Source of the DNA: Candidatus Electrothrix yaqonensis
GTDB lineage: Bacteria > Desulfobacterota > Desulfobulbia > Desulfobulbales > Desulfobulbaceae
Assembly: GCA_047651235.1 (NCBI GenBank)
Contig: CP178758.1
Span: 1,200,001-1,232,000, forward strand
Direction of reading: 5' to 3'
DNA length: 32,000 nucleotides
Shown: piece by piece, positions 8,427 to 27,826 of the stretch
Layout: the number at the start of each line of letters is the position of its first letter
Position numbering within the stretch: the stretch's first letter is position 1
The notes under the pieces: generated by a model
The model's input: only the letters and a program-made list of their open reading frames with translations
Databases searched by the model: none
Told to the model about the DNA's origin: nothing
Position numbers and translations under genes: made by a program

Positions 8427-11400
8427 TTAGGCGGTTGTCGGTGTGCAATAATCCATGAGCTGCGCATCGATCATGGCCAGCATCTGTTTATCGTTCCAGC
8501 CCCGTACTTCCGCTGCGCTGTTCCGGCAGGTTGCGGCGCACATACCGCAGGCCTGGCAGGCCGCAGCATCCACGACAATGCGGTTATTCTCGGCATCAAA
8601 GGAACGGGCGCCGTAGGGACAGGCCTCGATACATCGTTTACAGCGCACGCACAGGGCATCATGAACAGTGGAGACCTCGCGGGCCAGGGGGATTTCCCGG
8701 CCGGACAGAAAGACCGAAGCCTTCTGGACTGCCGCTTCCGCCTGCATCACGGCCTCGCGCAGAGTCATGGGCGCATTGGCCACACCTACAGCATAACAGC
8801 CTGATTTATGGAATTCCACCGGTCGCCATTTTGGGTCAGCCTCGGCAAAAAAACCGTCCTGGTTCAGGGAAACCCCGAAAATATCCGCCAGCTCCTGATT
8901 CCCTGAATCCGCCTGAATACCGGTGGCCAGAACCAGCAAGTTTGCCGCAACCTCCAGCTCCGCATCCAGGATCGGATCCCTGAACATGACTGTGGGTTTG
9001 CCGAGCCGCACCTCCACCCTGGGTTTGTTTTCCGGGCTGTAGCTGACAAAGATCACCCCTTTACGCCGGGCCTCGGTGTAGTAGCGTTCATAGGGGCCAT
9101 AGCTCATCATATCCCGGTACAGGATAAACACCCTGACTTCCGGTTTCTTTTCCTTGATCAGCAGGGCATTCTGCAGGGCGCCCATGCAGCAGACCCGACT
9201 GCAATATTCCCGCGCCTCCTTTTCTCTGGAATCCACGCACTGAATCATAACGACCTCTTTCATCCTGCTGAAGTCGATTTCGTCAGCCCGGAGCGCCTTG
9301 CCGAATTCCGTATGGGTCATAATCCTATCCGAGTCCGCATAACTGTACGCTGTGGTCGGACTATTCTGATTGCCGGTGGCCAGAATGGTCGCGCCATGTT
9401 CAATGGAGAGAATCAGGCCGGAATCATGCTCTCTGATCTGGGTACTGTACTGCCCAGCCTGACCGCCGGAGCTGAGGATCTCGCTGTGCAGATGCACGGT
9501 GATCCGGCCGGTGTCGGCAACCCTGCGGGAGAGATCTTCAGCAATGGCCATAGGTTTGAGTCCGTCCAAGGTGGCGCTGACCTGATTGCCTGCATAACCG
9601 CCCAGTTGTTCAGTTCGTTCCACCAGATGGACCGCTGCGCCGCGTTCCGCCAGAGACAGGGCCGTGTACATGCCGACAATGCCGCCGCCCACCACCAACG
9701 CAGTCTGTTGGGGCGGAAGGATGTCGAACTGCAGGGCCGGGGTGAAACGCAGTCGGTCGATATGAGCGCGGGTTTCCCGGATCAGACGGGCAGTGAAATT
9801 CTCACCGCTGTCCTTTCCGCCCAGGGCCGCGCTGATGTCAAAGACCTTGACCAGGGAGGGATGGAAACCGGCCTGTTCAGCAATCTTCTGCAATTTATTC
9901 TGGTACAAGAACGGCTTGGCCGCGCCGATCAGCAGGCGGTTGCCTCCCGCCCGGCTGACAAGCTCGGTAAACCCGGCCAGCCCGTCGTCGCCGTAGATGG
10001 TCTCCAGGATATGCACCCTGGCCACGCTGCGCAGGGATTCCAACTCCTTGGTCAGCAGCTCAGCATCAAGCTTATCACCTTCTTTATCATTAAAGCCTTT
10101 GCAGAAGATTACTTCCAGCCGGGCCGCTTTTGTGTCCGCATCGGCATCTTCCTTCTGCTCCGCTTCCTGCTCCTCGTTCACCGTGGTGACATCCAGAGCG
10201 GCCAGGGCCTTGGCCGTCTCACCGGCTGCCGCAATGCCGCTGCTCACTGCCTCGCTGATATCGGTCAGGCCCATAAAGGAGCCGCAGATAAACACCCCGG
10301 GTTTACTGAGCCGCACCTTGCTGAGTTCGTCCGTGGGCAGGAGCCGCTGCTCGTTGACCTCCAGATTCAGCATTTCCGCAAAGCGCTGCTGTTCGGCAAA
10401 GGGGGCCTGGCCGGTGGAGAGCACGGTCAGGTCAAAGACCTCCACCTTGAACTCGTTGCTGTCCGGATCAAAATAGCGGATCTGCAGGCTGCCGTCCGGA
10501 TCAGCATAGACCTGCTGCACCCGGCAGCGGATCAGACGCACGCCTTTGTCCACCGCCTTTTCAAAATAGCGGAAATGATCCTTACCAAAGGTCCGCATGT
10601 CCATATAGAAAATGGTGGTCTCGGTGTCCGGACCGCCTTTTTCTTTGGCCAGCACAGCCTCTTTCAGGGCGAACATGCAGCAGATGGATGAGCAGTAATC
10701 CCGGCCCAGCCGCCGGTTGCGGGATCCCATGCACTGAATCCAGGCGATCCGTTTAGCCGGTTTGCCGTCCGAGGGCCGATGAATCACTCCGTCATAGGTG
10801 CCGGAGCGGCTGAGCAGGCGCTCAAAGGCCAGGGCCGTAACCACATCCGGGGACACGGCATAGGACTGCGCATCTTCAACCGTGGTGTCCCAGAGCTTCG
10901 CCCCTGCAGCCAGAATAATCGCGTTCACCTGCCGGGTCTCGATTTCCTCCTGCTGCTCGAAATCAATGGCCCCGTTGGGGCAGACCTCCAGGCAAGGCTG
11001 TTCGGTGCAGCCGCTGCAGGCATCCCGATCCACCCGAAGCATATTGGGCAGGTTATGGGGCACCATCTGATACACGGCCTTGCGCTTGGTCAGCTCATGG
11101 TTGAAGCCGTCCTCCACCTCCATCGGGCAGACCTTGATGCATTCGCCCATGCCGTTGCATTTGGCCGGATCAATATAGGCCGGTTTTCTGCGCAGATCCA
11201 CGCTGAACTTGCCCAGATCGCCGCTCACCGCTGTGACCTCGGTAAAGGGCAGGATCTCGATATTGTCGTGGTACAGGCTTTTGCGCATGCAGAACTGGGA
11301 GGCATACTCCCGCCCGACAATGGGCAGCATCCTGCAGATACCGCAATGATCCGTGGGAAACTGATGATCCAGCTTGGCCAGAATGCCGCCAATATGCGGG

Positions 11401-11516
11401 GAGGCATCCGCTATCAGAACCTTGTAGCCGGTTTCGGCCAGTTCCAGGGCCGCCTTGATGCCGGAAATCCCGGCACCGACCACCAGCACCCGGCCGATCT
11501 CTTTTTTTTCCGTCAT
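8427..11516 (-). CDS. hdrA: Large HdrA-like flavoprotein with two FAD/NAD(P)-binding HdrA modules and a C-terminal 2x[4Fe-4S] domain (1029 aa)
   Basis: Two dinucleotide-binding folds (VLVVGAGISGIKAALELAETGYKV and ALVVGGGIVGMYTALSLAERGAAV). HdrA Cys motifs are present: FPTDHCGICRMLP, and twice ...Q/IQC.GSR...YCS.(I/V)CCM.ALK. Ferredoxin-type motifs are CNGMGECIKVCP and CVRCKRCIEACP...CQACGMCAATC. AGGAG lies upstream of the ATG. Confidence 0.9.
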   Translation of the reverse strand: MTEKKEIGRVLVVGAGISGIKAALELAETGYKVLIADASPHIGGILAKLDHQFPTDHCGICRMLPIVGREYASQFCMRKSLYHDNIEILPFTEVTAVSGDLGKFSVDLRRKPAYIDPAKCNGMGECIKVCPMEVEDGFNHELTKRKAVYQMVPHNLPNMLRVDRDACSGCTEQPCLEVCPNGAIDFEQQEEIETRQVNAIILAAGAKLWDTTVEDAQSYAVSPDVVTALAFERLLSRSGTYDGVIHRPSDGKPAKRIAWIQCMGSRNRRLGRDYCSSICCMFALKEAVLAKEKGGPDTETTIFYMDMRTFGKDHFRYFEKAVDKGVRLIRCRVQQVYADPDGSLQIRYFDPDSNEFKVEVFDLTVLSTGQAPFAEQQRFAEMLNLEVNEQRLLPTDELSKVRLSKPGVFICGSFMGLTDISEAVSSGIAAAGETAKALAALDVTTVNEEQEAEQKEDADADTKAARLEVIFCKGFNDKEGDKLDAELLTKELESLRSVARVHILETIYGDDGLAGFTELVSRAGGNRLLIGAAKPFLYQNKLQKIAEQAGFHPSLVKVFDISAALGGKDSGENFTARLIRETRAHIDRLRFTPALQFDILPPQQTALVVGGGIVGMYTALSLAERGAAVHLVERTEQLGGYAGNQVSATLDGLKPMAIAEDLSRRVADTGRITVHLHSEILSSGGQAGQYSTQIREHDSGLILSIEHGATILATGNQNSPTTAYSYADSDRIMTHTEFGKALRADEIDFSRMKEVVMIQCVDSREKEAREYCSRVCCMGALQNALLIKEKKPEVRVFILYRDMMSYGPYERYYTEARRKGVIFVSYSPENKPRVEVRLGKPTVMFRDPILDAELEVAANLLVLATGIQADSGNQELADIFGVSLNQDGFFAEADPKWRPVEFHKSGCYAVGVANAPMTLREAVMQAEAAVQKASVFLSGREIPLAREVSTVHDALCVRCKRCIEACPYGARSFDAENNRIVVDAAACQACGMCAATCRNSAAEVRGWNDKQMLAMIDAQLMDYCTPTTA

Positions 11517-11526
11517 GACTGATCTC

Positions 11527-12657
11527 CTATTTTGCCTGGCCGGTTACTTCCATCAGCTCATCATGATGAAAAACCGTCAGGGGCTGCGGTTCATCCAGGG
11601 ATCTGCCCGCCTCATATTCGAAACGCTCCTGTGAAACCTTGGCTGCCGCCTTGAAGGCCAGGGTAAGGTTGACGTCATTGGGACAGGCGCTGGTGCACTG
11701 GCCGCAGCCCACGCAGAAATTGCCGATATGGGTCATCCGGGTAAGGTGATAGAAAACCGTGTCTGTGGGCATTTTCAGGCTGCCCTTCTGCTGGGCCCAG
11801 CCGAGGAACTGTTCGCCGTCGTGGCGGAAGGTATCGGTAACAAACACGCATTCCTTGCAGTAACAGACCGGACAGGCCACCCGGCAGTTATAGCAGTTGA
11901 TGCATTTGGCCATATTTTCTTCCAGGGCCTGGAAGCTGTTGATTTTTTCCCGGTACTCGTTCAATTTATTGGTAAAGGCCTCCTGTCGGGCGGCAACTAG
12001 GCTTTTCAGCGCATCTTCCCGTTTCCAGGAACCGCTGCTGCCGGAGATCCCGCTGTCGGCAAGGGCCTGCTTGCCCTTTTCGCTGACCGCTTCAATGCCG
12101 AAGGTGCCCTCCCCTGCCCCGATAACGCAGACATGCATGTCCGCATTTGGAGTCACCGGGTGTTCGCAGGTTGCACAGGCTTCAATAATGTCCTGGCCGT
12201 TGGTTTCGGTTGTGCCGGACTGGGCCGCGCGGAGAAAGGATTCCGCTGTCAGGCCCTGTTCCTGCAGGCTGGAGAAATCCTTGTTTTCAAACCTGCCGAA
12301 ACAATCCAGACCGATGAGTAAAGTATCGTCCAAGGTTGCCTGATTGAGTTTGACCAGCTCGATCAGAGCGCGGATTTCGCAGGCGCGCATCACCAGAGCG
12401 ATCTTTTTGCCGGACGGCTTGCCAGTCAGAGAGGAGGCGAGCCGGGCTGAACTCACCGGCACAACCGGAGCAAAGGGATCAACCTGAGCGGTCTGGGCCG
12501 GATCAGTGATCAGGGTCTGCATAACCGAGCCGGAGGGCTGGCGGCAGGACACCAGCACCGCATCAACTGTTTTCTTTTCCAGTAGAGCAGCAAAGAATGT
12601 GCCCAGCTCTTTGTTCAGTTCGTTTGCCGTGTACGAGATTGTAATGAAATTGGACAT
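11527..12657 (-). CDS. FrhB/FdhB-like (coenzyme F420 hydrogenase/dehydrogenase beta-type) Fe-S flavoprotein with a C-terminal 2x[4Fe-4S] domain
   Basis: The N-terminal LGTFFAALLEKKTVDAVLV... and ...MRACEIRALIELVKLN...LLIGLDCFG resemble the FrhB_FdhB N/C domains. CINCYNCRVACPVCYC and CVGCGQCTSACP are cluster motifs. It is tightly packed between mvhD and hdrA and has a GGAGAA SD. Confidence 0.7.
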   Translation of the reverse strand: MSNFITISYTANELNKELGTFFAALLEKKTVDAVLVSCRQPSGSVMQTLITDPAQTAQVDPFAPVVPVSSARLASSLTGKPSGKKIALVMRACEIRALIELVKLNQATLDDTLLIGLDCFGRFENKDFSSLQEQGLTAESFLRAAQSGTTETNGQDIIEACATCEHPVTPNADMHVCVIGAGEGTFGIEAVSEKGKQALADSGISGSSGSWKREDALKSLVAARQEAFTNKLNEYREKINSFQALEENMAKCINCYNCRVACPVCYCKECVFVTDTFRHDGEQFLGWAQQKGSLKMPTDTVFYHLTRMTHIGNFCVGCGQCTSACPNDVNLTLAFKAAAKVSQERFEYEAGRSLDEPQPLTVFHHDELMEVTGQAK

Positions 12658-12674: not shown

Positions 12675-13100
12675 TCAGGCCGCTTCCTGTTTGTTTTTAA
12701 TCGGACTGGGGCCGAGGACTTTAATTTTTTCCGTCATTTCCTGAGCAACTTTCTGGAGCATGATGCCGTCGCTCGCCGCAATCCAGCGCAGCCAGAAGCG
12801 CTCTTCGCCGATGCCGTACTGCTTGAGAATTTCAGTCAAATGGGCAACCCTGCGTCTGGCCTTGAGATTGCCGTTGAGATAGTGGCAGTCACCGGGCCAG
12901 CAGCCGCCGATCAGCACCCCGTCCGCGCCGTTGAGAAATGCCTTGATCACGTACTTCGGATCCACCATGCCGCTGCACATCACGCGGATGATTTTCAGGT
13001 TCGGCGGATAAGCCAGCCGGGACGTACCGGCCAGGTCGGCTGCGGTAAACGTGCACCAATTGCAGAAAAAGGCGACGATTTGCGGTTCAAACTCACTCAT
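12675..13100 (-). CDS. mvhD: MvhD-like (methyl-viologen-reducing hydrogenase delta subunit family) [2Fe-2S] protein
   Basis: IVAFFCNWCTFTAADLAG...IIRVMCSGMVDP...GADGVLIGGCWPGDCHY is the canonical MvhD/FlpD signature. GGAGGA SD. It is the first gene of the operon. Confidence 0.9.
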   Translation of the reverse strand: MSEFEPQIVAFFCNWCTFTAADLAGTSRLAYPPNLKIIRVMCSGMVDPKYVIKAFLNGADGVLIGGCWPGDCHYLNGNLKARRRVAHLTEILKQYGIGEERFWLRWIAASDGIMLQKVAQEMTEKIKVLGPSPIKNKQEAA

Positions 13101-13217: not shown

Positions 13218-14900
13218 TTAATGTTGCCATCGAAACATTTCTCCTGTATTGATACTTTCGCAGTTTGACATGCAATCTCTTAAATAATTCTGCATTAAGG
13301 GTATCGAAGATAACTCGCAAATAGCTGTATTTATAACCCAATAATATTCTTCCTTAGCGGATATTGAGTTGGCAAGATTAGCTATGCTGCATAATGCAGC
13401 CGCTTCTGTTACTGCCGGAAGATTTAATGCATTCTTACGAAATCGTTCATCGCTATATTTTTTATACACCTGAACACATTTAGTTAACTCCCAGCTTATT
13501 TCGATACCTAAAAAAGTTCTAATCGCCAGATTAGCCATACTTATGTCTTTCAATAAAGTTGAATGGCTATTCAACATCGATTCAATTTTACTTTCTGGAC
13601 GACTCTCAGGAAAAATATTAGTATACAACCAGTAAATCATTATCCATACTTCCTGTTTTGATTTTTTTATTTGCGGAAGTATTTTTTCTATCTCAACCAT
13701 CAATCTACTTAAATCAGTTATTGATGACCTCGATTCAGCTTCTTGAAATAATGTTGATAATATTTTGTTTGCATCCTTTTTGGGAAGATTTTCCGTTCTC
13801 CATAACCAATATTTCGAATCAAACTCAATTTCTATTCTTCCCGGAAGGTCATCTCTCCAATCAAATTTTTCTTTTTCTACGGATGGAAGGCTAATAATTA
13901 AATTATTAATCACATGATTAGCAAGATTAAACAGACCAAGATAGGTAAGGTAAGGCTCTCCAGAAAAAGTAAACAGATAGCCCTTAGCTACTAAGTCGTG
14001 ACATCTAAGCTGATGTTGGATTGGACTAAGCTCATGTACAAACTTAGACCTCATTGAGTAGGCATTCTTGATAGCTCTTTTAAGATGACTCTTACGGAGA
14101 TGTAGCTTTGTTTCCTTTTTTTGATTTATAAAAAAAATATCATCAATATTTCTTTCTATAAAGGTAACAAAATTCTGTTGTATCTTTAAATGCCTGTCTT
14201 TAAGTAAAGTCTCTTTGATTCTTTGAGATTGTTCATTATCTATGCTTTGCAATATTTCATCTAATTCTCTACGATTTCTTTCTTCCCAATCCGCCCAAGA
14301 AGGATGGTATCCTTGAAAATCTTTTGCGAGTGATTCAAGACCGTAAATTAAAATTGAATAAGATAAATCTATATTGTATTCAAATGAATCTATAGAATCA
14401 GAAATACTTTTCAGAGCCGAAATAATCTTTTTATATGATGCTCTGTCAAGAGAAATTACTTTATCTATTATCGAAGAAAAATTTTCTGCATTTTCTTTTG
14501 TTAATCTTTTTTCAACTTCAGTAAAAGATGGTATAAATTTTGATATGGGAAAGAAACTGCTTTTTTTATTAAGCACAGGCTTGCACACACGTACTACCTG
14601 CTCTCTAAATTCTGAAAAATAACTTTGCAGCCCAAAAGTACACAGCAATTTAAATTGTTCTAATATCTCCGCGTCACCTGCTCTGACTAGGTGAAATGGT
14701 GAACTTGTATCTTTTTCAATCTGATTTTTATAACTAAAGACATAAGTTCCGATATCTCCATGATAATCTACAGGCTCTATACTTCCTATTGATGTTTCTA
14801 TAGGAGCTACCCATATAGCATTAGAAAATAAAACACCTTTTCCATTATGAATGTACCTGTCTTTGCTCGTGAAAAATTTTCCAGATATAATTTGCAGCAT
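13218..14900 (-). CDS. AT-rich 560-aa orphan protein with a HEPN-like Rx4H motif (candidate abortive-infection/defence RNase)
   Basis: A single uninterrupted 1683-nt ORF in a stretch with very low GC (one 60-nt line at 13621 counts 18 G+C; a hdrA line at 9601 counts 38). ATG start with GGTGA upstream. The central segment reads ...SILIYGLESLAKD...(~90 aa)...IKNAYSMRSKFVHELSP, with R284-x4-H289 encoded at 14034..14051. There are no TM helices or other familiar catalytic motifs. It lies immediately downstream of an R-M pair. Confidence 0.75.
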   Translation of the reverse strand: MLQIISGKFFTSKDRYIHNGKGVLFSNAIWVAPIETSIGSIEPVDYHGDIGTYVFSYKNQIEKDTSSPFHLVRAGDAEILEQFKLLCTFGLQSYFSEFREQVVRVCKPVLNKKSSFFPISKFIPSFTEVEKRLTKENAENFSSIIDKVISLDRASYKKIISALKSISDSIDSFEYNIDLSYSILIYGLESLAKDFQGYHPSWADWEERNRRELDEILQSIDNEQSQRIKETLLKDRHLKIQQNFVTFIERNIDDIFFINQKKETKLHLRKSHLKRAIKNAYSMRSKFVHELSPIQHQLRCHDLVAKGYLFTFSGEPYLTYLGLFNLANHVINNLIISLPSVEKEKFDWRDDLPGRIEIEFDSKYWLWRTENLPKKDANKILSTLFQEAESRSSITDLSRLMVEIEKILPQIKKSKQEVWIMIYWLYTNIFPESRPESKIESMLNSHSTLLKDISMANLAIRTFLGIEISWELTKCVQVYKKYSDERFRKNALNLPAVTEAAALCSIANLANSISAKEEYYWVINTAICELSSIPLMQNYLRDCMSNCESINTGEMFRWQH

Positions 14901-15031
14901 ACTTGTTAAGTCACCAACTTTACACGGAAATGGTATAAAATCTCATTCATGGATAAAGTGACCTTCCAGAGTGCGCAGAGCTTACGGAATGCGTGGAAGG
15001 TGTTGTTTACTGTTTTTTCATATTCAGCCAG

Positions 15032-16237
15032 TTACTTATTTTTCTCACACCATATTTTATCAATCAATGACCCGGCAATAATACCTGCCAGTTCAACAGG
15101 AACGGCATTACCGATCTGCCGCATACTTTCCGACCAAGAGCCTGTTATCCTGTACTCCTCATGAAAAGTCTGTAGAAGCTTCGCTTCATAGGTTGTGTAA
15201 TACCGTACAGAACCGTCAGCATTCCGCAGCATATTTTCTCCGCCCGGAACACCGTGCCCTCCGGCTTTGATCGTCTTTGAGGGAAAGTCTATAAAACTCC
15301 CGGTATGCCCCGGATAAGCCCGCGCTCCTTTCCGGAGAATATGCTCCGGGTGATAGGCCCCTTCCTCATCCGGGTGAGGAACTGCTTGCAGTGTATCCCG
15401 CACAGTACGCCACGCCTTGCTTGCAGGCGGGAAAAGCTGCGGCTGTTTTTGCAGTCTTTGGATAAAGGCGGCAGTTCGTCCGTCATAACAGGATATATCC
15501 GCCGGATTAATTTCGTGTCGTTCCCAATACTCCTTTGTAATAAACTGCGAACGAATCAATGACTCCAAAGAATGCGTCTGCTCAGGAAATGACCATTCCA
15601 CCTCCAGATCGTTTCTGATACCGACAATGACAACACGTTCTCTTCGTTGCGGAACTCCGTAATCAGCAGCATTGATCAGCCGGAAAAGAACATTATATTT
15701 TATTCCCTTATATCTCTGTGAGGTATGCGCTCTTTCAAGTCTACGGAGATGTTCTTGCCATGCTTCGGATGATCGTATTTCAAGTTCGGGATAGGTAAGT
15801 CGAAGCAATATGTATTCAAAATACGTGGAGAAAGATTTCCTCAAAAGTCCCTTCACGTTTTCAAAGATAAATACGGAAGGCGTGCATTGCGCAATGGCTT
15901 TGCAGGCATAGGGAAACATATCCCTCTGATCGGTATTTCCCCTGTGCTTCCCGCCTATGGAGAAAGGCTGACAGGGAGGACCGCCCGCAACAATATCCAC
16001 ATGTCCATATGCACCAAAATCAAAATCCCGTATATCAGTATGATGGACAATATCCGGCTGAAAATTATGTTTGAGGGTGGCAGCGGCATCTTTATTCAGC
16101 TCAACCAAAGCCTCATGCCTGACGCCCTGTTCAGCAATGCCCAGCGCCAAGCCGCCAGCCCCGGAAAACAACTCAAGGCTCTTAATATTCTTATTCGCTT
16201 CCATATTTCGCCTTGAGTGAAGCCATGAAGTCGGCAA
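15032..16237 (-). CDS. dcm: DNA (cytosine-5)-methyltransferase (type II R-M modification subunit)
   Basis: All the classic m5C MTase motifs are present: I LFSGAGGL, IV GGPPCQPFS, VI FENVKGL, VIII QRRERVVIVG and X GNAVPV. An alternative start is the ATG at 16204 (MEANKNIKSLELFSGAGG). Either start overlaps the 3' end of the upstream restriction gene. Confidence 0.92.
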   Translation of the reverse strand: MPTSWLHSRRNMEANKNIKSLELFSGAGGLALGIAEQGVRHEALVELNKDAAATLKHNFQPDIVHHTDIRDFDFGAYGHVDIVAGGPPCQPFSIGGKHRGNTDQRDMFPYACKAIAQCTPSVFIFENVKGLLRKSFSTYFEYILLRLTYPELEIRSSEAWQEHLRRLERAHTSQRYKGIKYNVLFRLINAADYGVPQRRERVVIVGIRNDLEVEWSFPEQTHSLESLIRSQFITKEYWERHEINPADISCYDGRTAAFIQRLQKQPQLFPPASKAWRTVRDTLQAVPHPDEEGAYHPEHILRKGARAYPGHTGSFIDFPSKTIKAGGHGVPGGENMLRNADGSVRYYTTYEAKLLQTFHEEYRITGSWSESMRQIGNAVPVELAGIIAGSLIDKIWCEKNK

Positions 16238-16841
16238 TGCTTTTCAGCAACAGGTTTCTGTCGCTGTGTTTCCCTCGACATTTTTCCGCCCAAAGCCGAC
16301 CGGGATGACAGACATCCCAGTCGGACATCGCCTGTTCGTATCTTCCCCTGCCGGGATCATGGTTCCCGAATCCGTCAACAAGAGTGTTCCAAAGCGGCTT
16401 GTACTTCCTGATCAATGCAGCTTCAACAGTGCCGATAAGGTCGCTTTCCGCACCTTCAAGGATCATGAATCTGCAACGAAAATCTTCTGGCTCAATACTT
16501 TCAGCAGCCTGAAGACTTCTTCCATGCTCCCGAATCCTGTTATTGAGCTCATAACTTTCCGAGCTGGCAGAACTGCCTGAACGTGCCTGCCGCCATCCTT
16601 TCGGGACCGCCTTGCCGATATAGACCGGCAGAGCATACGATGTTCGATTGATCTCGTGAAAGTCTTTATAGATTCCGGCACGAGCTGTGCAGTATATCGC
16701 ATAAACACCGGTACCCTGAAACCTTTCCGGTACCGGAATGGACAAAACAGGTGTTCCATTGAAAAATCGAATGGTGTCTTTGATTATCTCCTCAACATCC
16801 GGAGAATGAAAAACATGTTTATTGCGATCAAATCGTATCAT
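16191..16841 (-). CDS. Eco29kI-family GIY-YIG type II restriction endonuclease
   Basis: GVYAIYC...PVYIGKAVPKGWRQ (a GIY...YIG-like half-motif), NNRIREHGRS (R..EH), EAALIRKYKPLWNTLVDGFGNHDPGRGR...SDWDVCHPGRLWA. From memory, this block order matches the Eco29kI/Cfr42I family, which cuts CCGCGG. It is paired with and overlaps an m5C MTase, as in Eco29kI. Confidence 0.75.
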   Translation of the reverse strand: MIRFDRNKHVFHSPDVEEIIKDTIRFFNGTPVLSIPVPERFQGTGVYAIYCTARAGIYKDFHEINRTSYALPVYIGKAVPKGWRQARSGSSASSESYELNNRIREHGRSLQAAESIEPEDFRCRFMILEGAESDLIGTVEAALIRKYKPLWNTLVDGFGNHDPGRGRYEQAMSDWDVCHPGRLWAEKCRGKHSDRNLLLKSIADFMASLKAKYGSE

Positions 16842-16858: not shown

Positions 16859-17356
16859 TCACTTCATCAGCTTCTTCGGCCTGAGAAACACCACCAACTC
16901 CGCAGCCCCTTCAGCAAGATCCCGCCAGCGGCATCCCTTCCTTATGGCAAGCTGAACATAGCCGCAGGTCGGCACATTTTTCACCGCGCTGTTACTGAGC
17001 GCATTGCAGAAATCCGTTACCGCCGGATTATGCCCGATGATCAGCGGCTTGGTTATCGACTCATCAAGTGCCCTGCACCAATCAAAAAGTACCCTGCTGT
17101 CAAAGGTGTAGAGCTGCTCCGCAGTCTGCCACTGAATCTCCGCATTCAAGCACCTGCTGATACGTTCTATGGTTGCCTGCGCCCTGACCGCCGGGCTGCA
17201 GAAGACGTGCTCAAAACAGCACCCGACAGCAGCAATATGCTGCGCCATGAAACGGCAGGTCTTCCTGCCGCGCTTGTTCAGCGGCCTGTCAATATCTGCC
17301 AGCGAGACATCCTTCCAGCTCGACTTGGCATGGCGGATCAGGTGAATCTTTTTCAT
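16859..17356 (-). CDS. Histidine phosphatase superfamily protein (SixA-like phosphohistidine phosphatase)
   Basis: IHLIRHAKSSW (RHA catalytic motif), DIDRPLNKRG, CSPAVRAQAT and LIIGHNP, at a length (165 aa) typical of the SixA branch. Confidence 0.8.
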   Translation of the reverse strand: MKKIHLIRHAKSSWKDVSLADIDRPLNKRGRKTCRFMAQHIAAVGCCFEHVFCSPAVRAQATIERISRCLNAEIQWQTAEQLYTFDSRVLFDWCRALDESITKPLIIGHNPAVTDFCNALSNSAVKNVPTCGYVQLAIRKGCRWRDLAEGAAELVVFLRPKKLMK

Positions 17357-18255: not shown

Positions 18256-21200
18256 TCACTGCAGCAGCCCGTCAATCTCGGCAAAAACCTGCCTGTCCGT
18301 GAAATGCTTAACCTTGGCCGCGCCGCTGGGACAATGGCCTGCACAGCTGCCGCAGCCCTTACACACCGCCTCGTTGACCTCGCTGACGCCTTTATAGGCA
18401 TTAAAGGTAATTGCCCCGTAGGCGCAGAGTCCGATACAGGCCTGGCAGCCGATGCAGATGTCCGGGTCAATCCCGGAAACCATCGGCGAGATTTCCACCG
18501 TACCGGAGGAGCTCAAGGCCAGGCATTCCGATGCCGCGCCTTTGGCCTGGGCCACGGTATCCGGGATATCCTTGGGTCCCTGACAGACCCCGGCCAGAAA
18601 AACGCCGCTGGACGGCGTAGACACCGGTTCCATTTTCGGATGCTCCTCCTGGAAAAAACCGCTCGGCCCGGTGCTGATGCCGAAGGTGCGGGCCACGTCC
18701 AGGGCATCCTTGCGCGGCTCGATAGCCATGCAGAGAATCGCCATTTCCACATTAATTTCCACCATTCTGCCGGACAGGGTGTCTTCGGCCCGGACAACCA
18801 GGGTTTTATCTTCCAGCTCGTTGATCTGCCCGGCTTTGCCCCGGATCATGCGTACGCCTTCAGCCTGCACCTTTTGGTAGAACTCCTCATACCCCTTGCC
18901 GAAGCAGCGCATATCAATATAGAAATTATAGACCTGCGTGTCATGGCCGCATTTATCTTTGAGCAGATGGGCAAACTTCAAGGCATACATACAGCAGACC
19001 CGTGAACAGTACTCATGATGATTTATATCCCGGCTGCCGATGCAGTGCAGGATGGCCACGCTTTTCGGAATCTTGGTGAACTCGCCCTGGTCATCCCGGA
19101 TGCGGATTTTACCGGAAGTAGGACCGGTGGCGTTGCTCAGGCGCTCAAACTCAAAGCTGGTGAACACATTGCGGTGTCTGCCATAGCCGTACTGAGACAT
19201 CGGGGTCGGGTCCATCAGGTCAAAGCCGGTAGCCACGACAATGGAGCCGACATCCAGCTCCAGTTTTTCCGGCTGCATATCATGGTCAATGGCCTTGGGC
19301 ATACAGGCATCCACGCACTGATAGCATTCGGAGCAGACAGCGCATTCCAAGCAGCGTCTGACCTCCCGCTGCACCTGCTCCTCTGTGAGGCTGCTGAGGA
19401 TCTCCCGGAAATTGCCATTCCGTTCCTTCAGGGGCAGGCGGGCCGGGCGTTCCCGTTTCATCATTTTTGTGCCGTTCAGCTCAGGTTTGACATACTCCCA
19501 CGTTCTTTCCCGGCCCTCTTCAAGGGATTTGCCGTTCAAGAAGCGATCAATACTCTCAGCTGCCTGTTTGCCGGATTCAATGGCTTCCACCACGGAACGT
19601 GGTCCATACACCGCATCCCCTCCGGCGAAAATCCAGCTTTTCGGGGACTGGAGGGTCAGCGGATCAACATCCAAGCCGCCCCGGTTGGTGACAGCAATAT
19701 TCTGATCATCGGTAAAATCCAGCTCGGCGCTCTGGCCGATGGCCACAATCACGGTGTCCGCGTTCAGAGTAGTCAGCTCGCCTTCATCGTACTGGGGCCG
19801 GAAGGCACCGTCCGCATCAAACACGGCTGTGCAGCGTTTAAACTCTACGCCGGAGCAGATGTTATCTTTGCCGATGAACTGTTTCGGGCCCAGCGAGTTG
19901 ATGATCTCCACCTTTTCCTCCAAGGCTTCTTCGACTTCATAATCCCAGGCAGGCATTTCGTCGCGTTTTTCCAAGCAGATCAGAGTGACGTTTTCAGCGC
20001 CCACCCTTTTGGCGGTCAGGGCCACATCAACAGCCACATTGCCGCCGCCGATCACGATGACCTCTTTGCCCACAGCCATATCTCTACCCAAGGCAACATT
20101 CCGCAGAAAGGCCACGCCCGGCAGGATGCCCTGCATGTCCTCGCCCGGCACACCCAGGGCGCGGCTGCCGTGCAGACCGGTACCGATGAACAGGGCCTTA
20201 TAACCTTCCTTGCGCAGGCCTTCCGTAGTGACGTCTCTGCCGAGGGCGGTGTTTGTTTTGATTTCAACGCCCAGTTTTTCGATCATGCCGATTTCTTTGG
20301 CCAGAATATCCTGCGGCAGGCGGTATTCGGGAATCCCCACGGCCATCATGCCGCCCTTGACCGGCAGTTTTTCAAAGATTGTGACCTGATAGCCTTTCTG
20401 GGCTAGATAATAGGCTGCAGTCAGCCCGGCCGGACCTGAACCGACCACGGCCACTTTTTCCTCCCGCTTCTCGGCAACCTCCGGCAGGTACGGCTCGTCT
20501 GCAGCCAGATCAAGATCAGCAAGGTAGCGGTGCAGATGCTGGATGGCCATAGGCTGATCCGCATCTCCCCGTGTGCAGGCTCCTTCACAGGGATGATGAC
20601 AGACCCGGCCGCAGGTGGCAGGAAAGGGATGCTCCTTTTTAAAGAGCCGCACAGCTTCTTTGTACTTGCCTAACTCCATCAGGGCGATGAACCCCTGAAT
20701 GCTGACATGGGCCGGACAGGTGGCCTTGCACGGGGCAGTCCCTTTTTTGTCAATGATATAGGTAATGGGCACTGCCTGGGGAAACGAACGGTAGATGGCC
20801 TTGCGGTCAGCAATGCCCACATCCCACTCGTTGGGCCGGGTAATGGGACATACCTTGGCGCAGTCGCCGCAGCCGGTGCAGATTCCCTCTTTCACGTATC
20901 TGGGCTTTTTATCCACTTTGACCTTGAAATTGCCGACAAAGCCCTCCACCTCTTCCACTTCCGCATGGGTGATCAGTTCGATATTCGGGTGCTGGCCCAC
21001 GGCAACCATTTTCGGGGTGCCGATACAGGCGGCGCAGTCTAGGGTGGGAAAGGTTTTATCGTACTGGAGCATGTGATTGCCCACAGTGGAGCCCTTTTCT
21101 ACGAGATAAACCTTGTACCCGGCCTTGGCAATATCCAGGGATGCCTGCATTCCAGCAATACCGCCGCCTACCACCAAGGTATTGGTGTTGACGGAGAATT

Positions 21201-21612
21201 TGCTCGGAATGAGCGGACTCTGTCTGGTCACCCTGGTAATACCGGCCCTGACCACGGTTTTAGCTTTTTCCGTGGCCTCATCCTCATCTTCTGTGACCCA
21301 GGAGACATGCTCCCGGACGCAGACCATGTGGAATGCCTTGTAGGGATTCAGCCCGGCCCGCTGACAGGCAGCCCGGAAGGTCTTTTCATGCATTCTCGGC
21401 GAACAGGAGGCAACGACAACGCAGTCAAGATTATGCTCTTTGATGTCTGTTTCCACCAGCTCTTGTCCGGGGTCAGAACACATGAAGAGATAATCACGGC
21501 CCACCACCACGCCGGGCAGGGTCGTTGCATATTCAGCAACTTCTTGAACCCGGACTCTGTAGGCGATATTGATCCCGCAGTGACAAATATAAAATCCTAT
21601 GCGCTTCGACAT
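18256..21612 (-). CDS. hdrL: HdrA-like / GltD(NfnB)-like fusion flavoprotein ('HdrL'-type, 1118 aa)
   Basis: HdrA N-terminal Cys domain (IGFYICHCGINIA...VVASCSPRMH) and FAD fold LVVGGGIAGMQASLDIAKAGYKV. A glutamate-synthase-small-subunit-like segment is inserted (CPAHVSIQGFIALMELGKYKEAVRLFKKEHPFPATCGRVCHHPCEGACTRG, then VAVVGSGPAGLTAAYYLAQKGY and VIVIGGGNVAVDVA). The sequence then returns to HdrA motifs (LHCIGSRD...YCSRVCCMYALK) and ends in a 2x[4Fe-4S] domain (CIGCQACIGLC, CKGCGSCAGHCP). GGAGAA SD. Confidence 0.85.
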   Translation of the reverse strand: MSKRIGFYICHCGINIAYRVRVQEVAEYATTLPGVVVGRDYLFMCSDPGQELVETDIKEHNLDCVVVASCSPRMHEKTFRAACQRAGLNPYKAFHMVCVREHVSWVTEDEDEATEKAKTVVRAGITRVTRQSPLIPSKFSVNTNTLVVGGGIAGMQASLDIAKAGYKVYLVEKGSTVGNHMLQYDKTFPTLDCAACIGTPKMVAVGQHPNIELITHAEVEEVEGFVGNFKVKVDKKPRYVKEGICTGCGDCAKVCPITRPNEWDVGIADRKAIYRSFPQAVPITYIIDKKGTAPCKATCPAHVSIQGFIALMELGKYKEAVRLFKKEHPFPATCGRVCHHPCEGACTRGDADQPMAIQHLHRYLADLDLAADEPYLPEVAEKREEKVAVVGSGPAGLTAAYYLAQKGYQVTIFEKLPVKGGMMAVGIPEYRLPQDILAKEIGMIEKLGVEIKTNTALGRDVTTEGLRKEGYKALFIGTGLHGSRALGVPGEDMQGILPGVAFLRNVALGRDMAVGKEVIVIGGGNVAVDVALTAKRVGAENVTLICLEKRDEMPAWDYEVEEALEEKVEIINSLGPKQFIGKDNICSGVEFKRCTAVFDADGAFRPQYDEGELTTLNADTVIVAIGQSAELDFTDDQNIAVTNRGGLDVDPLTLQSPKSWIFAGGDAVYGPRSVVEAIESGKQAAESIDRFLNGKSLEEGRERTWEYVKPELNGTKMMKRERPARLPLKERNGNFREILSSLTEEQVQREVRRCLECAVCSECYQCVDACMPKAIDHDMQPEKLELDVGSIVVATGFDLMDPTPMSQYGYGRHRNVFTSFEFERLSNATGPTSGKIRIRDDQGEFTKIPKSVAILHCIGSRDINHHEYCSRVCCMYALKFAHLLKDKCGHDTQVYNFYIDMRCFGKGYEEFYQKVQAEGVRMIRGKAGQINELEDKTLVVRAEDTLSGRMVEINVEMAILCMAIEPRKDALDVARTFGISTGPSGFFQEEHPKMEPVSTPSSGVFLAGVCQGPKDIPDTVAQAKGAASECLALSSSGTVEISPMVSGIDPDICIGCQACIGLCAYGAITFNAYKGVSEVNEAVCKGCGSCAGHCPSGAAKVKHFTDRQVFAEIDGLLQ

Positions 21613-23970: not shown

Positions 23971-24575
23971 TTTTTCGCAGTCTTCCGATATCCTCTGTCT
24001 CCTTGTCTGCCGACCGGAACCGGGCAGAAAACCTGTTCTGATTTTTTCGGCTTGTCGTGGTGGCTCATTGTGGTCTATCGCTTTATTTTATCCTGTGATC
24101 AGGATATCCACACCGTGTTACTATGCAGTATCTGATGAATTGGAGAGAGTTGTCGTATTTGATCGTTTAATCAGTATGATCCAAGATATTTCCGGAGCTG
24201 TGTTCGGACAAGATCAAACTGCAAAACGAAGCCACTATAATCAGGTCGGGACAAAAATGAAACAATTAAAAATAAAAATTTAAGGCGTACGGTTATGGAA
24301 TTACAGCTCAAAAAGACACGGTGTGGTATTTTTCGTTATGTCGGAATTAAAACTGCAATCCTTCCGGCAAAACAAAAAATATGTCAGGAGATGAGACAGA
24401 TCCGTGTTTCCAGTCTGTACATGAGTGCGGAGGTGGACTTACAGATATCTTTCTCAGGGGGAAACACTTTGTATTTTCAGGCCAAAGAGGGCATAATACA
24501 AGTTATACAATATACATATCACTTTGCGTCAGGCAGCCTCCCCCCTGCTGCCGCAGCCCTGGCGAGGAAGACAGG

Positions 24576-24958
24576 ATGAAAAGACAGCTGAGGTATTTTT
24601 TTCTTGGAGTAATATCAGTCGCGGCAACCATCAATCCGGTGTATGCCGACTGGCAAGACGTCGGTACTCCCGGATTTTCTGCCGGTGAGGTTAAATGCCG
24701 GTGAGGTTAAATATACGACCCTTGCCCTGAACAGCAGGTACCCTATGTGGCTTATATGGATACGGCAAACGGGAACAGAATCAGTGTGATGCGTTTTGAC
24801 GGCACCTCCTGGATTCAAGTCGGTGCACATGGTTTCTCTGCCGGAAAGATCCGTGATATCAGCCTTGCCGTAGATAAGAGTCCTTATTTGATGCAGCTCA
24901 TGAGAATAAATCCAGCGTGATGAAGTTTGTCAGGGGAAGTGTCCGCCCCGCAGAGTGA
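24576..24958 (+). pseudogene. Decayed gene for a secreted tandem-repeat protein (signal peptide + repeats of the type GFSAG..(K/R)....LA(L/V)...PY(V/L)...D....N..SVM(K/R)F..(G)..W)
   Basis: ATG at 24576 with a GAGGAAG SD and the signal peptide MKRQLRYFFLGVISVAATINPVYA. The repeat can be followed only by hopping frames: a 16-bp tandem duplication (24681-24712) introduces a TGA, a further indel lies near 24735, and another lies near 24885. Repeat 1 is PYVAYMDTANGNRISVMRFDGTSWIQVGAHGFSAGKIRDISLAVDKSPY. Repeat 2 is ...FDAAHENKSSVMKFVRGS.... Confidence 0.5.
24681..24712 (+). repeat. Perfect 16-bp tandem duplication (gccggtgaggttaaat x2) causing a frameshift
   Basis: Read directly from the sequence: 24681-24696 equals 24697-24712. 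Confidence 0.9.
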
Positions 24959-25269
24959 TGAATCCCCTCCGGATTTATGCTTTATCCGCACAGAGAGCGG
25001 AGTAGTTGTTGTATCCTGTTTTTGCGGCAATATCCGGATCAACCGCCCTGCCCTCCTTCCGTTCTCGGTCTGCGGGTCTACGATACAAAAAAACAGGCGC
25101 TCAACGTTTTCTTCTGTATAGCATTTTCATATTGAGTAAGCATCACAAGCCGCAACGCCGAAAACAGGGTCGGGCCATCTCTGCGTCAATCAGATTCAGC
25201 AACATTATCCGTTATAAAGTTCATTCAAACTGAGGAGCATCACTTCTTCATGACACTCCTCTCCAAAAT

Positions 25270-25461
25270 TTACTCTTTAGTAATACAGTCTGCAGGACAT
25301 GAAGCTATCGACTCCTCAACGCAGTCCTCTTCCGCATTGGCACCTTCATTAACATATGCCTTTCCTTCAGCATTATCAAACGAAAATACTGAGGGGCACA
25401 TTTCAACACAGGTTTCACAGCCAATACATTCTTCCTGATCAAGAACTACTTTTTCTGACAT
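25270..25461 (-). CDS. Small [4Fe-4S]/[3Fe-4S] ferredoxin (63 aa)
   Basis: CIGCETCVEMCP ... CVEESIASCP is the mono-cluster ferredoxin pattern. The ATG at 25461 is preceded by GAGGTG. The track's GTG start at 25470 is part of that SD. Confidence 0.85.
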   Translation of the reverse strand: MSEKVVLDQEECIGCETCVEMCPSVFSFDNAEGKAYVNEGANAEEDCVEESIASCPADCITKE

Positions 25462-25563
25462 AATAATCACCTCTTTTTTTATTATCTACTTACTCTTTCA
25501 GACAGACTTTGCTTCTACTTCTTGTTCCGTTAAGCAGGTGTGCTCTTTTTCTCATCCTCTTCA

Positions 25564-25779
25564 TCATTCATCTGAACAGTCACATGCTAACTGGCTCCCT
25601 GCTGGTAAACAATCGCCTCTCCAGCAGCAATCCACCTGCTCGCAGGCAACATTGTCTGATTGAAAACAGGGGAAATTACCCTCCTCAATCTGGATAGCGT
25701 GGATCAGGTCAATTTTATTCATTTTTCCAGCGTCAATATCCATTTCTGAAGCTTTCTTCTTAACGTCCTTGATGTTCAT
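25564..25779 (-). CDS. SAP/Rho_N-like miniprotein with a Cys-rich C-terminus (71 aa)
   Basis: MNIKDVKKKASEMDIDAGKMNKIDLIHAIQIEEGN resembles the Rho-N/SAP helix-extended-helix motif. It is followed by FPCF....C....CCWRGDC......C.C. AAAGGAG SD. It lies upstream of and co-oriented with the ferredoxin. Confidence 0.6.
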   Translation of the reverse strand: MNIKDVKKKASEMDIDAGKMNKIDLIHAIQIEEGNFPCFQSDNVACEQVDCCWRGDCLPAGSQLACDCSDE

Positions 25780-25809
25780 AATTCACACTCCTTTGTTTTT
25801 GGATTTGTA

Positions 25810-26233
25810 CTATTTTCCTCTTACGGGCCAAAGGTAAAATTCTGACAGCGGTTTATAGCCAACACCGACTGCACCATCTACCATATAGAGTACCCATGCA
25901 TAACTCTTATCATACATGCTTGTGCTTGAAGACCAATAAAACTCCTGAACATCTTTGAATACATGATCAGCTGGCAAAGCCGGGGAATGTTGGCTTAAGT
26001 CTGTCAGGCTCTCCAGTTCAAGAACATTCGGGACTCGCCAATCATTATAGCCATATGCCGTTTCACTGTTCATCGTTGAAATGAAACGAAAAGCAGAATT
26101 CCAATCCATTGTGGTTTTGGCGACATTTGCATTTCGCAACTATATCAAACCGGTATCATTGTCATAGACAGTCTGTTCATTTTCAGTAAAACGATCCCTG
26201 GAAAACTTTAAACCTTTATATGCATCAGAGAAG
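25810..26233 (-). pseudogene. 3' part of an IS-disrupted gene: DUF1566 (Lcl C-terminal-like) domain with an in-frame TAG
   Basis: RDRFTENEQTVYDNDTGLI*LRNANVAKTTMDWNSAFRF...YGYNDWRVPNVLELESL...FYWSSSTS...AWVLYMVDGAVG...WPVRGK follows the DUF1566 pattern. The TAG at 26140-26142 sits where the family has W (TGLxW). The frame is continuous with 27434..27826 once the IS is removed. Confidence 0.75.
26224..26233. repeat. Target-site duplication, left copy (ATCAGAGAAG)
   Basis: An identical 10-mer directly abuts both IS ends (26224-26233 and 27434-27443). Confidence 0.85.
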
Positions 26234-27433
26234 CAGGGCTGTTCAATTCTAGAAAATCCCGGCGTAATCAAACAGACGATTTATATCCATACAGTTCCTG
26301 AAAAGCTCCCGGCTGACATTTTTCACCTTGTTCTTACGAAGAATATTGAGAGCAAAGCTTCTCAGTTTCGCAAATATGTGCGGATTGCAACGAATTCGGG
26401 AGCGGTCTTCGCCCATAGAAACATCCCGAACATAATGATTTCCATTCTCGATCCGCCAATGCCCCAGGATTCCCTGACATATTTCTTCAGCGTCCGAACC
26501 GGCTGTTGAAACATAAAAGGATGTCTCATGAGTGTTTTTCCATTTTTTCTTCTTTGTATCAAACACCTGACGAAATCGATCGATTCTGATGACGGCTTCG
26601 GCCGAACTCCATTTTTTCGCATCCGTAAGCAGCGGGGACAGAAAAACTTCCACTTTGCGACTCTCTATACGGTTTCGTTTTTTTTTCAAAAGGCCCCGTG
26701 AAAACATCATCAGGAACAGACGTATTCGCGATATTTTCACAGTCGTTCAGGAGAGTTTTCTGATTTTTTTTAACCTGAGCAATCACATCGTTTCCCGTTT
26801 CAGCGGCGGCCTGAAGAGTTTTTTTCTGACAATGAAGGGCGTCGAAGGTAAAAATGCGGTCGGATAAACCGAGTTCTTTCATCAGTTTCCGCGCCGCCGG
26901 GATTTCATTGCTTTTCTCCCTGATTTCTTCATGGCCGAGAACGACGGCGCGGTCGCCAGCAAAAGCACTCAATATCTGAAGCTGATTAATATCCTTCATG
27001 TTATCGAAACTTCCCCGGAGAGTTTTGCCGTCGCAATGAATAAATTCTCCGTCCGGTTCCTCTTCCGCGAGAGCTTTGCCGTGCTCCCTGAAAATCCGCT
27101 CAAGTTCCGAACCGGAAGTATTCAGAATGACAGTGCGGATCGTTGTATATGCAGGAGCTTTTTTCCAGTCCAGGCCGAAATATTCATTGAGCCTTTCACG
27201 ATGCGCATCAACGAACAGATGGATTTTGCGATAAGAATCCGAACCGCTCAGGATCGCCATGATCGAAAACAGAAGAATATGCGTAAGCTCATATCGCCGG
27301 CCCTGCCCGCGTCGATGATCTTTGATTGTGTTCAGCAAAAAAACAGCATGCAGAATCCTCGTGTAAAGTTTTTCTGTATCAATTACTGCATACGTCTTGA
27401 AAATACAAGCTCTTATAGAACTGAACAGCCCTG
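26234..27433 (-). mobile_element. ISAs1-family insertion sequence, 1200 bp, with ~18-bp imperfect terminal inverted repeats and a 10-bp TSD
   Basis: The left end CAGGGCTGTTCAATTCTA (26234-26251) and the reverse complement of the right end, CAGGGCTGTTCAGTTCTA (27416-27433), match 17/18. The element is flanked by the direct repeat ATCAGAGAAG. It encodes a DDE transposase of ISAs1 type. Confidence 0.85.
26249..27338 (-). pseudogene. ISAs1-family transposase split into two overlapping frames (259-aa + 163-aa ORFs) by a frameshift at an A9 run
   Basis: The N-terminal ORF (MLNTIKDHRRGQGRRYELTHILLFSIMAILSG...CDGKTLRGS...FDALHCQKKT) and the C-terminal ORF (...GHWRIENGNHYVRDVSMGEDRSRIR...) together give one typical ~365-aa ISAs1 transposase. 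The frames can be joined at the T9/A9 homopolymer at 26678-26686 (...FTGPFEKKK|RNRIESRKVEVF...). Confidence 0.75.
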
Positions 27434-27443
27434 ATCAGAGAAG
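27434..27443. repeat. Target-site duplication, right copy (ATCAGAGAAG)
   Basis: See the left copy at 26224-26233. Confidence 0.85.
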
Positions 27444-27826
27444 CCTTTTTTCATGTGGTCCCATGCATCGGCTGAACTGGTTTTCATGCTGCCGTACCAT
27501 TCAGCAACCTGATTCCGTTGCTTGCGAAGATCTCTGAGGTTTTCACGAGTTTTTTTACGGGCAGCTTTACTCATGGTATCCCAATTTTTATCAACGCTTT
27601 TCTCCAGCGCATTGATACGTTTATCAAGCTTCGTCAGACCCTCTTTTGTTTTTTCAAGTGCCTCCTCTTTTTTATCGGCAGTATATGAACCGATAGTTTT
27701 GAGCAAATCCTGACTTTCCTTCTTCACATCTTCCATTGAAGTGTTGCTGTTTTCCGTTTGTGCAAAGAAAAGTGGAACAGCACCGAGTATGCTGATCAAG
27801 ACTAGCGCACAGGCTGTTGATTTCAT
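27434..27826 (-). pseudogene. 5' part of the IS-disrupted gene: signal peptide + coiled-coil domain
   Basis: MKSTACALVLISILGAVPLFFAQ (signal peptide) is followed by a heptad-rich K/E/L segment ending ...SSADAWDHMKKGFSD. The last six residues of track ORF 27413..27826 (QGCSVL*) are read from the IS inverted repeat. Confidence 0.75.

Follow-up and report, generated by a model that had tools for sequence, protein, structure and literature searches.

A widespread, previously undescribed protein family with a HEPN-like motif, found beside restriction–modification and other defence genes

What does an AT-rich gene do directly behind a restriction–modification (R-M) pair in the genome of a cable bacterium? 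The DNA analysed here is a 32,000-nucleotide stretch of Candidatus Electrothrix yaqonensis (assembly GCA_047651235.1, contig CP178758.1, positions 1,200,001–1,232,000 of the forward strand), referred to as the window and numbered from its first letter. The gene, called X below, encodes a 560-amino-acid (aa) protein that is 100% identical to XOF34761.1 (ACL93V_05590) of Candidatus Electrothrix sp. YB6. A first-pass annotation, made from the letters alone, had proposed that X is an undescribed orphan, a single-gene defence or abortive-infection effector carrying a HEPN-like Rx4H motif. The existence and size of a protein family around X, the conservation of its residues, its predicted layout, its defence and R-M neighbourhoods and the lack of a fixed partner gene are established below. 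The explanation favoured here, with a probability of about 45%, is that X belongs to a widespread, mobile and undescribed family of stand-alone immune proteins, abortive-infection-type effectors with a HEPN-like ribonuclease (RNase) core.

A large family with a nearly invariant residue cluster

The term orphan does not hold for X. A first word-indexed search returned 74 homologs, mostly full length and 25–51% identical to X, and an exhaustive profile search recovered 1280 representatives of 50%-identity clusters at E≤1e-3, with 504 at E≤1e-30. Nearly all of these 1280 representatives are 560–570 aa long and match from end to end. Genome and metagenome scans, which used one N-terminal peptide pattern only, placed members in Bacillota, Desulfobacterota, Planctomycetota, Myxococcota, Acidobacteriota, Thermotogae, Atribacteria, Armatimonadota, Spirochaetia, Pseudomonadota, methanogens and an Asgard archaeon, and in one abundant human-gut lineage. 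Plasmid copies were detected by tblastn in six genera (Bacillus thuringiensis, Paenibacillus bovis, Acinetobacter baumannii, Ralstonia, Nocardia and Bradyrhizobium), and the same method found a family gene in 1 of 50,697 phage records, a gut phage contig.

Every member is publicly named 'hypothetical protein'. Searches of Pfam, NCBIfam, PADLOC and PHROGs with X as the query gave no significant match; the best hit in PADLOC-DB v2.0.0 was Cas4 (E=0.028), and nothing recurred across 60 members. No paper mentioning any of 11 family accessions was found in the literature. The family is absent from Pfam, NCBIfam, PHROGs, PADLOC-DB v2.0.0 and the searchable literature, and the suspicion that it had not been described before was borne out.

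The Rx4H motif had been placed at R284 and H289, and both residues are indeed found there, within the peptide NAYSMRSKFVHELSP. A bare Rx4H arises by chance in 48% of shuffles of the X sequence, so the motif alone is weak evidence; it becomes significant because it is near-invariant among homologs. Conservation was scored on 286 unique homologs aligned to the family hidden Markov model, with 20–100% identity to X (median 31%). Eight residues form a nearly invariant cluster: W202 is kept in all 286 sequences, Y281 and S285 in 285 each, E189 and H289 in 284, R153 and R284 in 283, and Y181 in 281. E189 lies in the helix ending ...YGLESLAKD that had been noticed about 100 residues upstream of the motif; the measured distance to R284 is 95 residues. 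The consensus around it reads LE[SA]L[SA]Q, and the two sequences that lack Glu at this position have Asp. Around the Rx4H itself the family motif is N-A-Y-x-x-R-S-x-[YF]-x-H-x-L, located at the C-terminal end of the helix spanning residues 270–290, which is the most conserved segment of the protein. A tyrosine-recombinase or RES-domain identity of this Arg/Glu/Ser/His/Tyr cluster was considered and rejected by reasoning, since neither the order of the motifs nor the predicted all-alpha fold is suitable.

AlphaFold2 modelling of full-length X from a 60-sequence alignment gave a predicted local distance difference test (pLDDT) score of 88.9 and a predicted template modelling (pTM) score of 0.76; the central domain modelled alone reached 91.5 and 0.84, respectively. 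The models divide the protein into an N-terminal alpha/beta domain, a central helical domain and a C-terminal all-helical domain. The conserved N-terminus MLQIISGKF begins at Met1, which fixes the start codon of X, and M1, L2, Q3, G7, K8, F9 and N27 are the conserved positions of the N-terminal domain. DSSP of the model assigns this domain three long strands (residues 15–26, 39–45 and 51–62) followed by helices. The earlier description of a beta-looking region of about 150 aa is therefore right for the strands and too broad for the rest, the region being only partly beta. A PD-(D/E)xK nuclease site in this domain was rejected on reasoning: E62-K63 precedes G75-D76, the wrong order.

The central domain holds 12 of the 13 positions conserved in at least 95% of sequences. 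Its helices are proposed from the model as H1 (153–172), H2 (177–194), an insert (207–250), H3 (270–290) and H4 (320–337), with a beta hairpin (309–318) before the last. The C-terminal domain, whose helices span residues 362–559 in the model, is the most variable part of the protein, with a mean entropy of 2.77 bits against 2.22 for the central domain. It had been described as a helical region, and an all-helical domain of about 200 aa is what the model predicts; it is weakly TPR/ARM-like, with non-significant TPR-type Foldseek matches and an ARM_TT21 match at E=0.019. When the family consensus, whole and per domain, was compared with Pfam, only non-significant matches to T4_baseplate, DUF5601 and ARM_TT21 appeared. 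The N-terminal domain matches no known family in that comparison.

The central domain and the HEPN description

HEPN domains are defined by an Rx4-6H motif at the end of core helix 3 and the start of the next loop, with a polar residue, typically N, D or H, after the motif Arg; helix 2 carries a conserved acidic residue, often as Ex3[KR], and a variable insert separates helices 2 and 3 (PMC3710099). The X family contains the Rx4-6H motif nearly throughout, and the residue that follows its Arg, S285, is polar. In two AlphaFold2 models the helix 270–290 is predicted to end in R284...H289 and to run into a loop, and three inserted helices lie between the two predicted hairpins of the central domain. 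The predicted topology fits the published HEPN description, and E189 is a candidate equivalent of the helix-2 acidic residue. The only weak profile matches that recur by type, in Pfam and PADLOC searches with 60 members, point to HEPN-bearing models. HEPN_Apea, the sole HEPN model of Pfam to match, was hit by 2 of the 60 members (best E=0.067), and PADLOC gave isolated single-member matches to Cas13-ApeA (E=0.0018) and Csx1 (E=0.0023 and 0.016).

A substantial body of results weighs against a HEPN assignment. Ser after the motif Arg is unusual for HEPN, which typically has N, D or H there. Most family members have Ex3Q in place of the Ex3[KR] pattern: the residue four positions after E189 is Gln in 210 of 286 sequences and Lys in 25, X itself having K193. 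The invariant Y281, W202, R153 and Y181 are not canonical HEPN residues and could define a different active site. HEPN-clan models of Pfam gave no significant match with X, with 60 members taken singly or with consensus sequences, and neither did the HEPN models of PADLOC, which yielded the isolated weak hits above, or of NCBIfam. Sequence searches of the PDB were negative whether run with X alone, with the full-length profile or with that of the domain. When the central domain was aligned by hhalign to a 22-sequence RiboL-PSP-HEPN alignment, the probability was 0.7% and the two Rx4H motifs were left unaligned. The AlphaFold and Foldseek comparison that the first-pass annotation had proposed also returned no HEPN core: the full model retrieved TPR-like noise from the PDB (best E=0.33) and nothing from BFVD, and the central-domain model, despite its high pLDDT, retrieved generic helical bundles only (PDB, best E=0.7). 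Finally, the window copy carries R243N and R325N at positions that are Arg in 87% and 93% of the family, respectively, and R325 falls in the putative helix 4. These substitutions could stem from AT-biased drift or from a lineage-specific change of activity; the eight-residue cluster is intact in the Electrothrix copy.

Two further comparisons were made with the central domain. An hhalign run of its profile against an AbiJ_NTD3 protein and a classical HEPN-nucleotidyltransferase protein gave no signal, and a domain-only profile search for distant Pfam-labelled relatives recovered only fragments of the X family. The HEPN-like reading of the Rx4H motif has thus fared unevenly: R284, H289 and E189 proved near-invariant, but the HEPN fold was not verified by any profile or fold search. 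Only the motif, the predicted arrangement of helices and analogy still carry it as a reading of the central domain.

Defence neighbourhoods, the window island and rival explanations

The genomic contexts were compared over 54 dereplicated lineages. The family gene recurs with known defence genes in unrelated genomes and has a patchy phyletic spread. No obligate partner gene was seen among the 54 lineages: no neighbour family occurs in more than 8 of them, the most recurrent being an N6-methyltransferase or type IIG-like gene (8/54). The immediate upstream gene shares the strand of the family gene in 45 of 53 cases, 31 of these within 150 bp, and the family gene typically sits at the downstream end of a co-directional cluster. 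An R-M-like gene is located within 3 kb in 15 of the 54 lineages, and about 70% of lineages have none nearby. R-M-like genes make up 7.6% of open reading frames (ORFs) within 1.5 kb, 3.7% at 1.5–3 kb and at most 0.9% beyond 3 kb, a density control that is somewhat biased by the choice of seeds from proximal genes. Integrases, resolvases, transposases, a relaxase and a primase are common near family members. At a few loci the neighbours are housekeeping genes (FTCD, a TonB receptor, a sulfatase), which is to be expected where islands are small. The neighbourhood survey suggested by the first-pass annotation therefore found defence islands and mobile elements with no conserved partner. R284 and H289 are kept and defence contexts dominate, rather than variable residues and housekeeping surroundings, and a single-gene defence or abortive-infection candidate next to R-M remains a good reading of these contexts.

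The neighbouring R-M systems are of several kinds. Besides the type II system with Eco29kI in the window, family members adjoin a type II system with EcoRII-C (Neisseriaceae), type IIG/MmeI enzymes (loci L019, L032, L043 and L075), type I systems (L037, L040), a type III-like system (L053) and a type ISP enzyme (L012). In the Spirochaetia bacterium MS502-68 (BNVE01000010.1, L037:8467-14002) the order is hsdM-X-HEPN_RiboL-PSP-hsdS, with hsdR 3.2 kb downstream. This order embeds the family member in a type I operon, as with PrrC, and the separate RiboL-PSP-HEPN protein (PF18735, E=4.1e-06) also lies between hsdM and hsdS, so that two putative RNase-type passengers share one R-M operon. The members in an Asgard Sifarchaeum (L019) and on a metagenome contig (L053) belong to the same 80%-identity lineage and are near-identical, yet they adjoin different restriction systems, a type IIG enzyme in the former and a ResIII-endonuclease (type III-like) enzyme in the latter. 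The family gene thus moves between R-M contexts.

Other members are found with other defence genes. AAA_15 plus DUF4435 (PARIS-like) and SIR2_2 occur at L005, RloB plus AAA_21 at L007, nSTAND NTPases and SIR2_2 at L008 and L097, a YobI-like NTPase at L103, AbiTii-TIR at L056, Patatin plus E1/E2/JAB at L012 and DndB at L010. On plasmids, the family gene is accompanied by cas9 and a GIY-YIG nuclease in B. thuringiensis, by an AAA ATPase and UvrD pair (Gabija-like) in A. baumannii, and by a TrlF-like ATPase, CBASS and AbiV in Bradyrhizobium. The gut lineage carries a cassette of a type IIG gene, a CAP12-type TIR gene, the family gene and a Schlafen/AlbA_2 gene, in this order (L075:1426-9157; also L080 and L118). 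The four genes are co-directional with short gaps; the type IIG protein has 1215–1235 aa, the CAP12/Pycsar-type TIR protein 251 aa, and the fourth gene encodes Schlafen/AlbA_2-HATPase_c_4. With the L080 cluster alone comprising 21 loci, the cassette may be a composite defence locus common in Lachnospiraceae-like gut genomes. A 451-aa AbiJ_NTD3 protein (E=4.3e-61) is encoded directly upstream of the member in Paenibacillus (L013:8618-9973) and Gordoniibacillus (L014:8593-9951), separated from it by 10 and 26 nt; the only match in the C-terminal part of this protein is a weak one to DUF559 (Vsr-like nuclease).

In the window, X is a single uninterrupted ORF of 1683 nt, as first reported, and it lies downstream of and co-oriented with a type II R-M pair that Pfam identifies as an Eco29kI endonuclease and a C5 methyltransferase (Table 1). 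The two R-M ORFs overlap by 47 nt, and the cognate endonuclease and methyltransferase are adjacent. The spacer between the methyltransferase gene and X exists as claimed, although at 131 nt it is one nucleotide shorter than had been counted. It contains no terminator-like site and no Rfam match, and no significant Rfam element was found around the island; the ATG of X is preceded at 10 nt by a weak GGTGA Shine-Dalgarno sequence. X may be co-transcribed with the R-M genes. The three-gene island interrupts a heterodisulfide-reductase/MvhD-type cluster and is bounded by a histidine-phosphatase gene and an mvhD-like gene. Inspection of its borders for att-like repeats and tRNA genes gave nothing convincing, and no integrase is present there.

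Table 1. Positions of X, its predicted parts and the surrounding genes in the window
Feature	Positions	Strand	Basis
X, 560-aa ORF, unannotated family member	13218..14900	minus	ORF list; profile search
N-terminal alpha/beta domain, aa 1–130 (predicted)	14511..14900	minus	AlphaFold2 model, conservation
Central helical domain, aa 135–345, candidate catalytic HEPN-like core	13866..14498	minus	domain model, conservation
E189, invariant acidic residue, helix 177–194	14334..14336	minus	conservation
Motif R284-S285-K-F-V-H289	14034..14051	minus	conservation; DSSP helix position
C-terminal all-helical domain, aa 346–560 (predicted), candidate sensor or interaction module	13221..13865	minus	AlphaFold2 model, Foldseek, Pfam, entropy
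Spacer between methyltransferase gene and X, 131 nt	14901..15031	minus	terminator, Rfam and Shine-Dalgarno inspection
C5 cytosine DNA methyltransferase, M of type II R-M pair	15032..16237	minus	PF00145 E=9.5e-56; PADLOC MTase_II E=1e-144
Eco29kI-family (GIY-YIG) type II restriction endonuclease	16191..16841	minus	PF09517 E=8.1e-68; PADLOC REase_II E=1.4e-90
Histidine-phosphatase gene (island border)	16859..17356		
mvhD-like gene (island border)	12675..13100		
hdr-type genes	8427..12657		
hdr-type genes	18256..21612		

X had been called the most compositionally foreign gene of the window, and the G+C content (GC) agrees. In 500-nt windows the X stretch has the lowest value (0.30–0.35), against 0.45–0.50 over the two genes upstream of it and 0.54–0.62 over the flanking hdr-type genes. 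Per gene, GC is 0.324 for X, with 0.251 at third codon positions (GC3), 0.476 for the methyltransferase, 0.482 for the endonuclease and 0.587 for the hdrA-like gene (GC3 0.718). The step from 0.48 in the R-M genes to 0.32 in X suggests, on composition, a mosaic island. Being AT-rich is a trait of the family and not only of this copy: in 26 of 27 genome loci (L013-L043) the GC of the family gene lies below that of the flanking DNA, by up to 0.21; examples are Asaia (0.46 against 0.67) and Polyangia (0.43 against 0.63). The composition profile also contains a second region of moderately lower GC (0.40–0.45) at 24000–28500.

What else could the protein be? The central domain might be a new catalytic or ligand-binding fold of a defence effector that is not HEPN, acting for example on DNA, NAD+ or a nucleotide signal, with the Rx4H likeness due to convergence. 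This is possible, if on the unlikely side. It would agree with the uniformly negative outcome of the formal HEPN tests despite high-confidence models, with the frequency at which a bare Rx4H arises by chance, with five further invariant residues beyond the canonical HEPN set and with the lack of Foldseek neighbours in the PDB and BFVD. It leaves aside that four features together match the HEPN description, namely the motif at the helix end, the polar residue following its Arg, the invariant Glu of the hairpin before it and the insert separating the two hairpins, and that the weak profile matches recurring by type are all to HEPN-bearing models. HEPN families are highly divergent, moreover, and helical bundles are poorly served by Foldseek. 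In a bolder form, a new catalytic fold built around R153, Y181, E189, W202, Y281, R284, S285 and H289 would make the family a new class of single-protein immune effector, present in bacteria and in archaea (an Asgard archaeon among them), preferentially recruited to the 3' end of R-M and other defence operons and sensing infection through its diversifying C-terminal repeats; this we regard as doubtful.

The frequent company of R-M genes raises the question of whether X acts on its own. As an R-M accessory it could regulate the system, serve as an adaptor, detect R-M inhibition in dependence on the R-M proteins (strict PrrC logic) or complement the methyltransferase as a modification-dependent nuclease. 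The enrichment of R-M genes at close range, the usual position of the family gene at the end of a co-directional cluster, the copy embedded in a type I operon and the lack of a terminator between the methyltransferase gene and X in the window would suit such a role. It is nevertheless quite unlikely, because the adjacent R-M systems are of unrelated types (II with Eco29kI, II with EcoRII, IIG/MmeI, I, III-like and ISP), which also speaks against a specific protein–protein dependence, and because most lineages lack one; others adjoin STAND NTPases, TIR, PARIS-like or Gabija-like genes instead. Service to the mobile element itself, as an addiction or stabilisation toxin, an anti-defence factor or a factor in competition between elements, is highly improbable. 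Plasmid copies, the proximity of integrases, resolvases, a relaxase and a primase, the one gut phage contig and the consistently low GC relative to flanking DNA could be taken in its favour, but phage records are almost devoid of the gene, no cognate antitoxin-like partner was found among the 54 lineages, and among the neighbours defence genes vastly outnumber those for transfer or replication.

Proposed mechanism and comparison with known systems

The favoured explanation, a stand-alone abortive-infection-type effector with a HEPN-like RNase core, assigns a role to each part of the protein; RNase chemistry, dimerisation, trigger sensing and the abortive outcome are all inferred. The protein would consist of three modules: a conserved N-terminal alpha/beta module, a central helical module with the invariant polar cluster and a fast-evolving C-terminal helical-repeat module. 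The central domain would be a HEPN-like metal-independent endoribonuclease, with H289 and R284 as the putative active site, assisted by S285 and E189 and probably formed across a homodimer interface. In uninfected cells the enzyme would be kept inactive. A phage cue, sensed via the variable C-terminal domain, a pocket that the N-terminal domain helps to form, or both, would release cleavage of tRNA or mRNA and lead to a growth stop, that is, abortive infection. The gene would be carried along as a passenger at the 3' end of other defence modules, R-M more often than any other, and in the window X would form a second layer behind the Eco29kI-type R-M pair.

If this explanation is true, a sizeable and fully unannotated family, with at least 1280 clusters at 50% identity in many phyla, joins the prokaryotic immune repertoire. 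It would be another RNase-type second line physically coupled to R-M, but one whose three-domain architecture is new and whose structure has no detectable relatives. X would be a tractable system for asking how a stand-alone effector stays silent and what triggers its release, with the invariant eight-residue cluster offering immediate targets for mutagenesis. The family merits a Pfam/NCBIfam model and a candidate entry in PADLOC and DefenseFinder.

Single-protein abortive effectors of RNase type that are linked to R-M are already known as a kind of system; the architecture and fold of X are without detectable relatives. A close parallel is with ApeA (Gao_Ape; HEPN_Apea, PF18739), a single-protein tRNA anticodon nuclease that acts by abortive infection and is activated by a small ligand (bioRxiv 10.64898/2026.01.26.701840). 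Like ApeA, which has about 580 aa, X is a single protein of similar size with no partner gene, and in both a non-catalytic N-terminal part accompanies the Rx4H domain, an RNase in ApeA and a candidate one in X. X is found in defence islands, as is ApeA, which in some lineages lies within R-M operons (PMC3710099). The HEPN domain of ApeA, however, is C-terminal (335-583), after N-terminal and Mid domains, whereas the candidate domain of X is central and followed by a helical-repeat domain of about 200 aa. The X family also lacks a significant HEPN_Apea or ApeA_NTD1 match (best E=0.067, 2 of 60 members), and its motif is RSxxxH plus extra invariant Tyr, Trp and Glu residues.

PrrC and RloC, like ApeA, are HEPN RNases linked to R-M loci (PMC3710099); located in or beside R-M systems, they serve as a second line when restriction is subverted (PMC3710099; bioRxiv 10.1101/2024.01.29.577857). 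The Spirochaetia order hsdM-X-(HEPN)-hsdS mirrors the logic of the prr locus. PrrC and RloC have an N-terminal ABC-type ATPase, whereas X has no P-loop or ATPase match in Pfam, NCBIfam or PADLOC. PrrC, moreover, is found almost exclusively in type I R-M, while X lies beside six kinds of R-M system and in most lineages beside none.

HEC-08 (DUF3644 HEPN plus zinc ribbons), in which mutation of the Rx4-6H histidine abolishes defence (bioRxiv 10.1101/2024.01.29.577857), is likewise a single-gene HEPN defence recognised by its position inside other immune systems. It differs from X in domain composition, and Pfam recognises its HEPN domain, which also matches the HepT structure 5YEP; X gives neither match. 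The MAE_18760 HEPN family has a beta-rich MAE_18760-NTD1 of about 121 aa followed by a HEPN domain (2013 HEPN survey), an arrangement that resembles the first two modules of X by description only; the Pfam models of that clade do not match X, and its reported ParA/Soj partners are not seen near X. STAND/Avs-type proteins differ from X in their NTPase domain, which X lacks, and the TPR/ARM likeness of the C-terminal domain of X is not significant. With these and other TPR-sensor immune proteins X nonetheless shares a gradient of conservation, in which variable C-terminal helical repeats are joined to a conserved effector.

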